Below are positions 1 to 64,000 of a DNA stretch of 64,000 bases, piece by piece; position 1 is the stretch's first letter; every line of letters begins with the position of its first letter. The DNA is taken from the IMG/VR virus record IMGVR_UViG_2713896908_000007; one strand, 5' to 3'. The DNA comes from a virus (taxonomy: Duplodnaviria > Heunggongvirae > Uroviricota > Caudoviricetes). A program made the translations under genes and the position numbers. The notes beneath the pieces were generated by a model that worked only from the letters and a program-made list of their open reading frames with translations, ran no database searches and was not told the origin of the DNA.

Positions 1-1
1 T

Positions 2-2341
2 TTTGGCGCTCTGGGGGCAAAGAAACTTGTAGGAATGCTACGCGGTGGTGGCAAGAAGACTCTCGCCCATGAAGGCGGAGATTTGGCTGCCCGGGCAGCA
101 GGTAAACTTGGATTAAAGGCCGTTGGTAAAGGAGCGTTACGCGCAATTCCCCTAGTCGGCACAGTGGCTGGAGGTATTTATGATGCGGTAACCGGTTGGA
201 ATGATACAGAAGCGCAACGTCGAGCGTTTGGGCTTAAATCAGGACAAGATCCATCATTCCAGCAAAAAGCCGCTTATACGTTAGCTAATGTTCTTGATAT
301 GGGGGGACTGGTATCTGGTATTAGCAGCGCCATTGGTGAGGTTCTCAAATCACTTGGATTTGAGGATATCGGCAATATGTTGCAATCATTTTCGACGGAA
401 AGTATTGCCCTGGCCATTGATAGTGGGATTACCAACTTAGAAACTTATATTTCTAACCTTGGCGACACCATTTCTACCAAGTTCGATGATTACACAGCAA
501 AGATTGGTGATGCTGTTTCAGCATGGTTTAGCGATACATCTAATAAGCTGCTTGAAAAGCTGGATGCCATCAAAGACTTCTTTACTGTCGATAACCTGAA
601 ACAGGTTTTCAGTGATGCAATTGATAGTGCAATTGATTTCATTAAGAACCCAGGGAAACACATTAAAGAGGCGGCTGGTAATATTTGGGATGGGGTTAAA
701 AATTTACCCGGTAAAGCATTAGATGCAGCGGTTGATGCCGTTAAAAATACCCCTGCGGCAATGATTGTATCAAAAATACCCAATCCGATCGGCGAGGCTA
801 ATGCGAAAGAAATCACTCCAGAGTTAAAAGCTCCGGTTAATAGCCACCAGGAGACGTCTAATTCTAAAACTGAATCCGATGCCAAACAGAGTAATATTGC
901 TACCCGCGTGATAAATGCGGCACTGGACACGGCGAAAGATAGCAATAAAACAGTAAAACAAACTGCCAATCAGATTATCAATGCAAATGCCGTAGAAACG
1001 GGCAATAGCGCGTTGCAGAAAATTGATAAAGCTATTGGTCAAAATAGCTCGTCATCATCGTCGCTTAATACCACTGGCACCAGGAATGACATTCAGAAAG
1101 CTGCGGATACCTACAACAATGGCAACTTGGATGTAAAAGTCGGAAGTCTTGGCGCTGAAGGTAAGGCAAATCTCGATAAGTTGGCTCCTTATTTTGCCGA
1201 ACTAGAGAATAAATACGGTCTTCCAGAAGGCACTCTTTACGCGATTGCTGCAACTGAATCTGGTGGTAATCCGTATGCAAAATCCCAAACCGGTGCTCTG
1301 GGAATGTTTCAGTTCACGGGGATTGCTCGTAAAGAGACTGGCTTAGCTGAAGGTGAATCGTTTGATCCTGTGAAATCGGCAGAAGCTGCGGCTCTTCTCA
1401 TGAGCAAGTATCTGAAGCAAGCCAATGGAGACTTAAACGAGGCCATCACTGCATATAACGCTGGGTTTGGCACTATCAATAAGTGGAAAAAAGGCACAGG
1501 TGACTTATCGAAAGAAAACCGTGAGTACGCGATCAAGGTCAATACTCATCGTGCTCGCTATTTAGGTGGTGAAATCTATACACCTGGAGCAGGAGCACAG
1601 GGTGGGGCGCAATATGGAGTGAGGGGACCACTGCCTGATAACGCTGTTATCGATCAGTCTACTGGCCTGGCGTTTACCCCTGGTGATAGCCCGTTTGAGA
1701 AAGGCGGTCTGGTAGACAAAATTGGCAATGCTGTTGGCGTTAACGATCTGGTCAACAAATTCATGAATGGCCGGGGTATGCGTCGGGAAGTCGTTCAGGG
1801 AACGCTCGAAGAACGTGCACGAGGGAAGGGGACCGCAACAGCAGCTGGCAATGTGTATGTTGATACTCCGATGCCAGTTGAAGAGGCGCGTCCGGTGGCC
1901 AGCAACTCAAGTTACTTTGACCAACTCGGCGCACAAATGGGGATTGATGGGCTATTCGATAAACTCCGCAATGCGCCGGGGATGCGGAAAAGTAATGCGC
2001 CTGAACCAGCCACTACGTCCCAAGTGACGACTGCCGCCAACGATTTGCAGCAACCAACTGGTCGTATGCAGATAGATGGGCAGGTTATTAGTGACCTTGG
2101 CGGCTCCGGTGCCAAGCCGACAATGCAGTTGGCTGATAATACCGTTTCACTTGATGGTGAAACGAAGCGGCTGTTTGCGCAGATGACCTCATTGCTTGCC
2201 AGGATTGAAGAGCACACTAAAGACTCGGCGAAAGGCCAGGGAACTGTCGTAAAGGTCAGCACGCCTCAACCGGGCGTTATGCGCACGGTGCCACTGTCAA
2301 TTGATGATCCGTTGATGAATGACTACGCGAGAGTTGATTGA
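2..2341 (+). CDS. sit: Tail tape-measure/injection transglycosylase (Sit-like), C-terminal part; 5' end outside window
   Basis: Frame of ORF 35..2341 is open back to position 2; lytic transglycosylase motif LYAIAATESGGNPYAKSQTGALGMFQF; lies upstream of baseplate and tail-fibre genes. Confidence 0.8.
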   Translation, partial: FGALGAKKLVGMLRGGGKKTLAHEGGDLAARAAGKLGLKAVGKGALRAIPLVGTVAGGIYDAVTGWNDTEAQRRAFGLKSGQDPSFQQKAAYTLANVLDMGGLVSGISSAIGEVLKSLGFEDIGNMLQSFSTESIALAIDSGITNLETYISNLGDTISTKFDDYTAKIGDAVSAWFSDTSNKLLEKLDAIKDFFTVDNLKQVFSDAIDSAIDFIKNPGKHIKEAAGNIWDGVKNLPGKALDAAVDAVKNTPAAMIVSKIPNPIGEANAKEITPELKAPVNSHQETSNSKTESDAKQSNIATRVINAALDTAKDSNKTVKQTANQIINANAVETGNSALQKIDKAIGQNSSSSSSLNTTGTRNDIQKAADTYNNGNLDVKVGSLGAEGKANLDKLAPYFAELENKYGLPEGTLYAIAATESGGNPYAKSQTGALGMFQFTGIARKETGLAEGESFDPVKSAEAAALLMSKYLKQANGDLNEAITAYNAGFGTINKWKKGTGDLSKENREYAIKVNTHRARYLGGEIYTPGAGAQGGAQYGVRGPLPDNAVIDQSTGLAFTPGDSPFEKGGLVDKIGNAVGVNDLVNKFMNGRGMRREVVQGTLEERARGKGTATAAGNVYVDTPMPVEEARPVASNSSYFDQLGAQMGIDGLFDKLRNAPGMRKSNAPEPATTSQVTTAANDLQQPTGRMQIDGQVISDLGGSGAKPTMQLADNTVSLDGETKRLFAQMTSLLARIEEHTKDSAKGQGTVVKVSTPQPGVMRTVPLSIDDPLMNDYARVD

Positions 2342-2697
2342 TGGCCAACAATAACGAAATTGATCCTTTACTGACGCTGGAGTTATCCGGCGTAAAAACG
2401 TATGAATCCCAGGAGGAGGCCTGGGGCGCTCGTTTATATGAGTGGCTAAACACTTATCAGGGTGAGGTATACGGCGATCCGTCATGGGGCAATGTTTTAC
2501 CGCAGTTTAAACACGAACCGACCAACTTGTCGCATGTTCAAATTGCGGTTGAGGCTATGCTTTTGCAAAAGTTGACGGCGGATTTACCCGACATACCTAT
2601 TTCTGGCTTGTCAGTAGCCGAGGGAGATGCTTTTGATAAGTTGAAAATATCCATTCGTATCAGGGATATAACTATCACACAGGACGTGGTGCTATGA
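2341..2697 (+). CDS. Hypothetical tail/baseplate-associated protein (118 aa)
   Basis: ATG 2341 overlaps sit stop (TGATG); track ORF 2338..2697 begins at TTG one codon upstream. Confidence 0.55.
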   Translation: MANNNEIDPLLTLELSGVKTYESQEEAWGARLYEWLNTYQGEVYGDPSWGNVLPQFKHEPTNLSHVQIAVEAMLLQKLTADLPDIPISGLSVAEGDAFDKLKISIRIRDITITQDVVL

Positions 2698-62620: not shown

Positions 62621-62623
62621 TCG

Positions 62624-63352
62624 ATGGCTGGTTTCTTTGATGACATGTTTGAGGACACAGAACCATCACAACAAGTGACTGGTGATAACATCCCGGACAC
62701 CGAATCGGATCCGGATATTCCAGGCGAAGGTTCTGAACTGATTGAAGAGGAAGATATTGATGCTGAAATCGAAACCGATGGTGTTAACGTTGGTAATATT
62801 GTTGATCCTGTGGAGGACAATCACCGTCCCAATCTGGATCACGGCCTGCTTAGTGACTCTGGTGTGCGCCACCGTTATGAAGGCCATGCAATATTTAATA
62901 ATCTTGTGCGGATGGACTGGCTCAAAGCAATCAAGCTAGACCCTGACTCATTCGATGCGGTTCTGTATCGAGCAATACCTTACAGAGACAAAAATGCACC
63001 TGAAACAGCATCGGAAATAATAGAACCTAACCAACGCATATATGACTATCAGGATCCAGAACTGATAACGGCCCTCGACTGCCCGGATGAGATGGACGCC
63101 TTCTACGCGCTATACGACGGCAGTGATAATACGGGAATTAGCGACAGCGCTTTAATCCTTCGTTTAGCCGCCGTTAATGTGCCAGTGGGTTCTATGCTCG
63201 AATGGCTGGAACAGCTGTCAGACGGCACAACCATTCGCCGCTTCTGGTACATCCATAAAATATTCAATTACGGCACTGCCAGGGTAGGCAGTTTGTTTTA
63301 TTGCGTGCCTTCACGCGCCTTTGAAGGGAATTTCATCGGTGATTCTGAATAA
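62624..63352 (+). CDS. Hypothetical acidic protein (242 aa)
   Basis: Acidic N-terminal 60 aa; tightly packed operon member. Confidence 0.6.
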
Positions 63353-64000
63353 TCAGGAATGGCTACTGGCCATCTTTAAGAAAAAAGGTCTTACTCCAAC
63401 CGGTAAGCTGGAATTTGCCACTATTGATGGCATTGATTCAGCGCTCGCACAGGCTTTAAACGAAGCGTTCGACTCACAAGTTGTCAGCTTTAATGATCGC
63501 ACTAACCAGTCATTCAGGGAGTTCCTGAAACGCACACCAAGAGATCGCATAACGCTCGGCACTTTTAGTGATGTGAAGGAGTGGTTGTCGTCATTTGAAG
63601 CCGATCGCGCCGGGCGTAAAGATACAGCCTCTGCTAGCCCGGTAAATAAGCTGGCAATGCCACTTGTGAATCTGTCTCGCTCTCCCGCGTTTTCAATTTA
63701 TGAAGGTGAGCTGTGCCGCGATAATTACGATGAAGGGCATGTCACCAATGAAAATGATGAGATTGAAGCTCTGGTATCGACTATCCCTTTCTCACTGGAA
63801 TATTCGCTCTGGATCGCCAGTGACGAGAAGGAATCTCTTGGGATGGTTGCAACTGCATTAGCATTCTGGCTACGAATGTATGCCAGCCTCGGGCAGGCAT
63901 CTTTCACTCACATTGCCAATATCGGCGGTTATGAAATTCCAGTTACCTGTTACATCGAAGGGCAAAAATCAATCGCGTTTCAGGATCTGACCACCGGCAC
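63339..64000 (+). CDS. Hypothetical protein, 3' end outside window (GTG start proposed)
   Basis: Frame open from GTG 63339 (AAGGG 10 nt upstream) to window end; not in ORF track because no stop is reached. Confidence 0.4.

Follow-up and report, generated by a model that had tools for sequence, protein, structure and literature searches.

The window analysed here is the whole of a 64,000-nucleotide stretch of DNA, given as one strand, from the virus record IMGVR_UViG_2713896908_000007. It is highly probable (about 0.9) that the window represents 64 kb from a phage-plasmid of the P1 group that resides in Escherichia albertii, a near-identical sibling of the plasmid pEA16-1_1, in which a conserved P1 backbone carries modules exchanged by recombination at accessory slots together with two insertions of TnpB elements. 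Judged by its sequence, the window is about two thirds of this phage-plasmid. The original prediction, made from the letters of the window, had described a mosaic P1-like architecture with several replaced modules, and alignment showed that reference P1 is indeed organised differently. The mosaic is real but ordinary: nearly all of its features have been published and the exact sequence is already public.

Identity of the window and collinearity with P1

The best plasmid match of the window was plasmid pEA16-1_1 of Escherichia albertii strain BIA_16-1 (NZ_CP117651.1; 99.95-100% identity), a 99,447-bp circular plasmid from a Polish starling. Direct alignment placed the window on positions 53592→1 and then 99447→88963 of this record, with 11 substitutions and 3 indels between the two. 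In a megablast search against phage records, P1, P7 and many P1-like phages matched at ~96-97% identity with a coverage of 50-64% per third of the window, and the coverage by P7 (AF503408) was no better than that by P1.

The annotated P1 genome (NC_005856) was used as the reference and compared locally by BLASTN. The window aligned collinearly with the reverse complement of P1 from 43358→1 and then from 94800→75471, and ~45 of the 64 kb were found in P1 order at 87-98% nucleotide identity. The identities of the aligned blocks were 95.9, 92.2, 97.1, 96.2, 97.4, 97.8, 96.2, 94.0, 87.5 (pacAB), 97.3 and 97.5%. The alignment was interrupted by eight non-P1 blocks (6962-12486, 16182-17791, 19735-20828, 24354-25631, 34887-35591, 40505-42232, 44993-46324 and 48802-54994), which total ~19.5 kb or ~30% of the window. 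This share agrees with the estimate that recombining genes make up about 30% of each P1-like element (PMC10879196). The GC content was 35-44% in the cargo blocks, compared with 47-52% in the backbone, and a lower GC content has been reported for the regions that vary in P1-like elements (PMC9603915; PMC6906374).

Forty-seven P1 backbone proteins were tested by TBLASTN, and 44 of them were intact in the window, the three disrupted ones being gene 16, darB and ddrB; the intact backbone genes had 91-100% amino-acid identity. The hallmark functions of the P1 group (Punavirus-like, P1 subgroup 1) were recovered in the same way, namely lox-cre, c1, pacAB, phd-doc, the dar operon and the tail and baseplate genes. 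A TBLASTN search for replaced genes with 28 P1 proteins gave no match in the window for Cin, U', isaB, Res, InsB, HumD, Lxr, Hot or PmgT/U/V. Eight variable regions have been described in P1-like phage-plasmids, among them res-mod, isaA-IS1-isaB, lydC-cin-Sv'-U'-U-S and pmgT...humD (PMC9603915), and these four correspond to RD-1, RD-2, RD-3 and RD-5 among RD1-5 (PMC6906374). The slots replaced in the window coincide with such published variable regions, and they are the places to look for cargo that had been pointed out beforehand; this restates a known property of P1-like phage-plasmids and is not new.

Modules in the accessory slots and the backbone around them

The slot adjoining the phd-doc addiction module (48127-48725, minus strand; 97-100% by TBLASTN) was filled, as had been claimed, by a type IC restriction-modification (R-M) cassette at 48802-54994 on the plus strand, with hsdM at 48908-50464, hsdS at 50461-51681 and hsdR at 51803-54919. 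Pfam matches, including EcoR124_C (E=2e-72), PADLOC type I models and the comparison with EcoR124 agreed on this assignment. The replaced span was wider than first stated: the cassette took the place of P1 84482-87970, which holds pmgT, pmgU, pmgV, upfM-O, hot, lxr and humD, and in BLASTN its flanks at 48801/48802 and 54994/54995 resumed P1 at 87970 and 84482, respectively. HsdR (1038 amino acids, aa) and HsdM (520 aa) matched the EcoR124I/II subunits over their full length with 2259 and 1145 bits (2w00, 7bst), and HsdS shared the N-terminal, central TAEL-repeat and C-terminal conserved regions in a residue alignment to 7bst_A. However, both HsdS target-recognition domains were new, and 3 TAEL repeats were present, compared with 2 in the solved EcoR124 chain; another recognition sequence and spacer length are therefore expected. 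By homology, hsdMSR would be a defence system of new specificity. The P1 annotation itself records flanks matching those of the EcoDXXI and R124 hsd loci, and type IC hsd loci flanked by P1 DNA are attributed to Tyndall et al. (1997) in the reference list of a later paper (reference 364 in PMC12707154). The stretch from 45000 to 64000, which includes hsd, was found in at least 127 PLSDB records at 80% or more of the query.

A complete c4-icd-ant unit was located between c1 (39654-40505) and pacB (42231-43715) with Rfam, Pfam and TBLASTN, which agrees with the earlier claim of immI-like functions beside immC. This second immI-type module (40538-42227) is encoded on the minus strand and had the same order as immI of P1, i.e., a C1 operator, a1 and b1, c4, a2 and b2, and icd overlapping ant, at 70-80% nucleotide identity. 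The C1-operator-like site TTTGCTCTAATAAATT (42227-42212) can be compared with Oc4 of P1 (AATGCTCTAATAAATTT). The upstream targets a1 (42110-42104) and b1 (42093-42086) were situated inside an isrK stretch (Rfam, 58 bits), followed by the c4 RNA (42013-41926; Rfam RF01695, 75 bits against a gathering score of 45; predicted fold -46.4 kcal/mol). The targets a2 (41921-41915) and b2 (41890-41883), the latter over the icd ribosome-binding site, precede the icd-like gene (41871-41650; 81% amino-acid identity to P1 Icd), which overlaps ant (41653-40538; 371 aa; Pfam ANT and ORF6N; 55% amino-acid identity to P1 Ant1). The c4 loops were exactly complementary to their targets over 7 and 8 nt, and the targets lie where they are expected. 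The module differed from immI of P1 in its location, beside c1 instead of beside sim and kilA, and in its targets, which were TTGAGAC (a) and GCAAAAGG (b), compared with TTGACAG and GTTAGTGA in P1 and TTAGCAG and GATTGTGA in P7. By homology, it would be a C1-controlled antirepressor unit with an antisense specificity of its own.

A relocated immI was ruled out. The source plasmid pEA16-1_1 retains the canonical icd-ant beside sim and kilA, outside the window, and the module beside c1 is therefore an extra copy. The canonical immI of pEA16-1_1 (about 58.3-58.7 kb) appeared as a hybrid, with a P7-type a/a' (TTAGCAG) and a P1-type b/b' (GTTAGTGA). As read from these targets, the plasmid carries two different antisense specificities when the second module is counted. 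The c1-immI2-pacB arrangement was present in 281 PLSDB records at a coverage of at least 80%, and ant between pacB and c1 has been reported for P1-like elements (PMC6906374). A RefSeq coding sequence named 'ash family protein' (NZ_CP117651.1 11507-11626; window 42009-41890) overlies the c4 RNA gene and is probably a spurious call of an open reading frame (ORF).

The cin gene and the C-segment were missing, as predicted: neither Cin nor U' was detected by TBLASTN, and inverted repeats longer than 18 nt were absent within 4900-12700. The gene lydC was also absent, the LydC query matching only the paralog lydA, and a cixR-homologous region is expected by BLASTN coordinate mapping alone to persist within S, at about 6775-6794. 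In place of P1 Sv, U, U' and Sv', a replacement distal tail-fibre module was found at 6962-10324 on the plus strand (Pfam Gp34_trimer, Collar, Macro and Caudo_TAP; phrog_2613, phrog_105). The S gene (5424-8855) kept the constant part of P1 through residue 518 and then continued into a foreign tip with Gp34_trimer and Collar domains. It is followed by a macro-domain gene (8852-9721; phrog_2613), which overlaps the S stop codon in an ATGA, and by a gene for a tail-fibre assembly protein (9746-10324; Pfam Caudo_TAP). The macro-domain protein had 91 and 71% amino-acid identity to proteins adjoining the tail-fibre genes of Chuche and SEN5, respectively; as these were read as P2-like phages, the tip module looks imported from P2-type phages. 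By homology, the S C-terminus, the macro-domain protein and the assembly protein would form a fixed host-range module replacing the Cin-invertible switch. The macro-domain protein, which is of the ADP-ribose-binding/hydrolase type, is translationally coupled to S and carries GAHSH repeats at its C-terminus that are similar to the HxH repeats in the tip of the fibre. Jumbo phages have 'appr-1-pase/tail assembly-like' proteins.

Where P1 has cin and lydC, the window had a three-gene cargo with a GC content of 35-38% (10379-12356, minus strand), recognised from the GC profile, Pfam Glycos_transf_1 and Hexapep, and phrog_20491. It encodes a small helix-turn-helix protein (12090-12356), a hexapeptide O-acetyltransferase (11514-12065; Pfam Hexapep) and a WaaK-like lipopolysaccharide (LPS) N-acetylglucosaminyltransferase (10379-11521; NCBIfam PRK15484, 658 bits against a cutoff of 618). 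The two enzymes are predicted by homology to modify the LPS of the lysogen. The adsorption receptor of P1 is the LPS core, and the genes could for this reason exclude related phages; the likeliest role of the cargo would be lysogenic conversion of the receptor. At position 10803, in the glycosyltransferase gene, the window has a run of T5 and pEA16-1_1 a run of T4. With the extra T, the gene is intact in the window, whereas it is frameshifted in the pEA16-1_1 record; the difference may reflect a sequencing error in the homopolymer or a switch that turns the gene on and off. The whole 5.6-kb tail-fibre and LPS module was found in 13 PLSDB records at 80% or more of the query. Loss or alteration of cin and the C-segment, and the presence of an acetyltransferase and tfa in the region, have been reported for other P1-like plasmids (PMC9603915; PMC6906374).

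In the original prediction, gldA and an HExxH/Abi-like island had been placed in the IS1 slot. The Abi-like ORF was found there, with weak matches, but gldA and the HExxH motif had been assigned to the wrong slot. The coordinates ruled out gldA in the IS1 slot, as it lies ~3 kb away inside ddrB. A chromosome-derived segment (16182-17791, minus strand) with a full-length gldA (16343-17446) replaced the 5' 1.36 kb of ddrB, corresponding to residues 1-447. The gene scored 749.5 bits with the NCBIfam GldA equivalog (cutoff 700) and had ~88% nucleotide identity to the chromosomal gldA of E. coli. P1 DdrB is a packaged protein of the antirestriction operon with a ParB-like domain at the N-terminus and a zincin peptidase at the C-terminus (PMC5512222; PMC12810830). 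The C-terminal part that survived in the window (residues 448-995; 17792-19438, plus strand; 96% by TBLASTN; phrog_2299 profile positions 445-995 of 995) contains the motif in the form HELGH. HExxH as foreign cargo was ruled out, since the motif belongs to the DdrB metallopeptidase domain (phrog_2299; PMC5512222); it is thus a backbone remnant of a protein that lost its ParB-like half. By homology, gldA would be a passenger metabolic gene which destroyed that half of this antirestriction protein. The gldA-in-ddrB arrangement recurs in many E. albertii P1-like plasmids, and it was found in none of 5,426 complete E. coli genomes at a coverage of at least 80%. No paper describing gldA in P1-like elements was found in the literature, and gldA in ddrB seems to be the only undescribed feature among the modules of the mosaic.

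The IS1/isaB slot itself (19735-20828, plus strand) held a single ORF of 292 aa (19893-20771) with an HEPN/Abi_C-like C-terminus based on sub-threshold matches, and isaA was kept at 20839-21786. At default thresholds, none of Pfam, PADLOC, NCBIfam and PHROGs gave a match for the 292-aa ORF. Its match to Pfam Abi_C had E=0.06, and 7 of its 25 homologs reached E<0.01, all below the gathering score. The homologs are ~288-aa proteins scattered across Gammaproteobacteria, and R247, H255 and G256 were invariant in the family, with an x7 spacing between R247 and H255. An AlphaFold2 model based on the 25-sequence alignment had a mean predicted local distance difference test (pLDDT) score of 64, only the C-terminal helical domain being confident. 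A Foldseek search of the PDB with this model gave nothing at E≤0.001, and the top matches were HEPN domains at a non-significant E of about 1; with the pLDDT of 64, the HEPN matches are therefore only suggestive. The name 'Abi-like' is a reasonable but unproven guess, and the gene is, by homology, a candidate abortive-infection gene. It was carried by 4 PLSDB records at 80% or more of the query.

The res/mod slot appeared as an alignment gap of 705 bp (34887-35591, minus strand), which replaces P1 3344-9750 with res, mod and IS5 (~6.4 kb). The lipoprotein that had been noticed in it stands as a prediction from its signal peptide, lipobox and transmembrane helix. It is the product of the sole ORF of the slot (34935-35333, minus strand) and, as read from the sequence, has 132 aa: its N-terminus is basic, a hydrophobic stretch ends in an LCGC lipobox, and the C-terminal transmembrane helix is rich in glycine. 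No family match was obtained in Pfam, PADLOC, NCBIfam or PHROGs. A homolog search returned nameless orphans, found only in Escherichia and on contigs of P1-plasmid size, and the gene was present in 24 PLSDB records at 80% or more of the query.

The two TnpB elements were confirmed by Pfam, NCBIfam and comparison of their junctions with P1. Element 1, which is IS609-like, occupies 24345-25639 on the plus strand (boundaries ±~3 nt) with tnpB at 24454-25584, and element 2 occupies 44994-46324 on the plus strand with tnpB at 45116-46291. Element 1 follows TCATTAT; its site is in the final codons of prt, 3 nt upstream of the start codon of pro. Element 2 separates the lpa stop codon from the pacA late promoter, at P1 90445/90446, and has matching subterminal hairpins (CCTCGCCC...GGGCGGGGAG) at both ends. 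Both proteins contained the Pfam domains OrfB_IS605 (RuvC-like OrfB), Cas12f1-like_TNB (zinc ribbon) and HTH_OrfB. They scored 358 and 347 bits with NCBIfam guided_TnpB (cutoff 100), and 394 and 388 bits with the stricter IS200_TnpB, below its cutoff of 425. No tnpA was present in either element, and both are therefore non-autonomous derivatives. They are clean ~1.3-kb insertions of tnpB and the ends only, with empty sites in P1 (TTAT then CGTTTCCCTCTTTAAAG; TCAG then ATACGTGCGGATGTGG). No target duplication was seen, hairpins were observed for element 2, and the boundary of element 1 is ambiguous by 3 nt. Both insertions were polymorphic among P1-like plasmids. Element 1 resembles IS609 of pJIE250-3, for which TTAT/TCAA cleavage sites were reported, in that it is 3' of TTAT and has TCAA near its right end (PMC6906374); the sites in the window, prt/pro and lpa/pacA promoter, differ from the reported pro/lydE site.

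Element 1 sits between two overlapping essential late genes, neither of which is broken. Its left end (24339-24365) shows a GGAGGG ribosome-binding site 7 nt from the pro ATG. Its right end (25617-25639), GTCAATAT, mimics the displaced target GTCATTAT at the end of prt, so that prt ends almost normally and prt and pro are both still read through. The isolated phage vB_EcoM-673R5 shares element 1, which suggests that a phage can grow with this insertion.

The 20 nt on the right side of each element (25640-25660; 46325-46345) were identical in P1 (around 19010; 90446), where they come directly after the presumed target-adjacent motif (TTAT or TCAG). A flank-guided ωRNA would thus match the empty site of a rival P1 and not its own junction, as would follow from the known homing mechanism of TnpB. 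A more far-reaching idea, which would follow from known mechanisms of c4 and TnpB, is put forward only tentatively, and we consider it unlikely: the second c4-icd-ant may be a working orthogonal immunity determinant, with an antisense recognition pair that differs from those of P1, P7 and the hybrid canonical copy; P1-like elements may carry combinations of immunity which decide which relatives induce or exclude each other; and the two tnpA-less TnpB elements may serve as RNA-guided weapons, by homing or interference, against relatives of P1 lacking the insertion. No report of such a c4 combination, or of TnpB weapon roles for P1-like elements, was found in the literature.

The backbone around the modules starts with sit (its 5' end truncated where the window begins), pmgA, bplA, gene 16, R and the constant N-terminal part of S (1-6961, plus strand; P1 43358→36304, 92-96% by BLASTN), all intact except gene 16. 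It continues with lydA, lydB, hdf, darA and ddrA (12487-16181, plus strand; 97% to P1 31244→27549), all of which are intact. The span from 38510 to 40505 contains the lox junction (38934/38935) and immC with cra (38510-38728) and c1; it had 94-96% identity to P1, and C1 is named in RefSeq. Just to the left of it, cre was detected by TBLASTN at 37471-38499. The genes from pap to gene 7 (54995-64000, minus strand; P1 84482→75471) were all intact and aligned without gaps at 97.5%. No tRNAs were found in a tRNA scan of the window. Plasmid replicon genes lie beyond the window in the pEA16-1_1 record, with a RepB-family gene, ParA/ParB, KilA and a gene at the position of repL. The most divergent backbone block was pacA/pacB (42233-44992), with 87.5% identity to P1 compared with 94-98% elsewhere, and the phage search gave a match of 95.6% to phiW39 over a wider span (ref to pacA). 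This sequence comparison points to allelic replacement inside the backbone too, besides the slots.

Origin of the mosaic and state of the phage functions

The junctions show that the modules arose by replacement and not by transposition, and we infer recombination as the mechanism. Co-resident P1-like elements would swap modules through homologous recombination in the conserved sequences on either side of a few slots, with P2-like prophages, plasmids and the chromosome as additional partners, and two simple insertions of IS200/IS605-type tnpA-less TnpB elements would have been added on top. Every replacement was bounded by backbone sequence that aligned cleanly to P1 in BLASTN, and the blocks recur in different combinations in other P1-like plasmids. 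The tail-fibre replacement, which was the sole block scanned for repeats, had no insertion sequence ends and no flanking duplications.

Three indels that affect reading frames, in gene 16, darB and the glycosyltransferase gene described above, had been missed in the original prediction; those in gene 16 and darB are deletions relative to P1 and pEA16-1_1. The gene 16 homolog (baseplate/tail tube; 4127-4896, plus strand) had a 64-bp deletion at 4484/4485, and its residues 1-119 and 139-278 are in different frames. The deleted 64 bp are present in pEA16-1_1 and P1, and the deletion is flanked by an 8-bp near-repeat, ACCGGTGG and ACCGGCGG. The darB gene (27414-34164, plus strand), which in P1 encodes a 2255-aa antirestriction methylase/helicase, had a 14-bp deletion at 33169, with residues 1-1918 and 1920-2255 in different frames; the 14 bp are present in pEA16-1_1. 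If the gene 16 deletion is real, this copy is probably tail-defective. The indels could equally be sequencing or assembly errors: as the sibling pEA16-1_1 has gene 16 and darB intact, the deletions are either very recent or errors of this kind.

The deletions raise the alternative that the window belongs to a P1-derived plasmid in decay, which is no longer a phage and whose modules are degradation debris and not selected cargo. Gene loss is a known route by which P1-like phage-plasmids turn into plain plasmids (PMC10879196), and the two frameshifting deletions of 64 and 14 bp, the loss of the first 447 codons of ddrB and the disappearance of the cin switch would all fit it. However, the remaining backbone genes that were tested were intact, with the high amino-acid identity given above, and pEA16-1_1 keeps both gene 16 and darB. 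The replacement modules consist of whole ORFs or operons and are found again in many plasmids, and the isolated phage vB_EcoM-673R5 shares not only the insertion of TnpB element 1 but also the second immI and the filling of the hsd slot. Decay is thus a doubtful explanation, though the strongest of those that compete with the exchange of modules in a P1-group phage-plasmid.

Several observations weigh against this exchange-based interpretation or limit how far it can be taken. With gene 16 and darB frameshifted and ddrB truncated, it is doubtful whether this particular copy still functions as a phage. The roles assigned to the modules all come from homology; the Abi_C/HEPN call was below threshold (E=0.06; Foldseek E about 1; mean pLDDT 64), the lipoprotein has no homolog of known function, and we infer, rather than observe, the LPS modification and the exclusion of phages. 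In addition, the plasmid replicon and the canonical immI fall beyond the window and were seen only in the matching public record.

A mosaic driven by transposition, in which the TnpB elements brought the neighbouring cargo, was found to be very improbable. TnpB genes are present in 2 of the 8 non-P1 blocks, and a related E. albertii plasmid has a TnpB gene between lydE and pro. However, P1 sequence resumes immediately on either side of both elements, neither of them abuts a replaced module or has a tnpA, no repeat pairs flank the tail-fibre replacement, and either side of the other blocks aligns cleanly to P1. An origin of the replaced blocks by transposition was rejected from the TnpB junctions and the repeat scan of the tail-fibre replacement. 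An assembly chimera of a P1-like plasmid with reads from the chromosome, a P2-like prophage and other plasmids, which the chromosome-like gldA (~88% to that of E. coli) and the resemblance of the fibre tip to that of P2-like phages might suggest, is effectively refuted: the junctions are shared by closed circular plasmids from independent isolates (NZ_CP117651.1, starling, 100%; CP045689.1, cowbird, 99.8% over 1-25000) and by many more E. albertii, E. coli and E. fergusonii plasmids, so that the arrangement is not a chance pattern.

Comparison with known P1-like elements

The window is a tidy example of a conserved chassis for virion formation and maintenance in which a few slots shuffle genes for host range, defence, immunity and lysogenic conversion. 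Four features could be worth following up: the widespread second immI (281 plasmids) with its own antisense specificity, the TnpB elements at the junctions of essential genes, the operon predicted to modify the LPS core, which is itself the receptor of the phage, and the exchange of the ParB-like half of DdrB for gldA, which is specific to E. albertii.

With P1 and P7 the window shares a collinear backbone from sit to gene 7 via lox-cre, c1, pac, phd-doc and the dar operon at 87-98%, with conserved operators and gene overlaps. It differs from them by the absence of res/mod, IS1/isaB, cin/C-segment/lydC and pmgT-humD, and by the presence of the extra immI-type module, the two TnpB insertions and gldA in place of the 5' half of ddrB. 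Features of the window that also occur among the published variants SJ46, vB_EcoM-673R5, pTZ20_1P, pSvP1 and JL22 are ant between pacB and c1 and a type I R-M system replacing the pmg genes. Replacement of res-mod and IS1, alteration of cin and the C-segment, insertions of IS609, and a tail-fibre region with an acetyltransferase and a tail-fibre assembly gene are likewise found among them (PMC6906374, PMC9603915). In contrast to them, the window has no antibiotic-resistance cargo, and the descriptions of published variants do not include its macro-domain, WaaK-like, gldA and 292-aa ORF fillings. The E. albertii P1-like plasmids, e.g., CP045689.1 and CP043244.1, share gldA in ddrB across the group; CP043244.1 differs in keeping a cin-like recombinase and in the site of its TnpB. 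The closest relative is pEA16-1_1, with which the window shares every junction at 99.95-100% identity.

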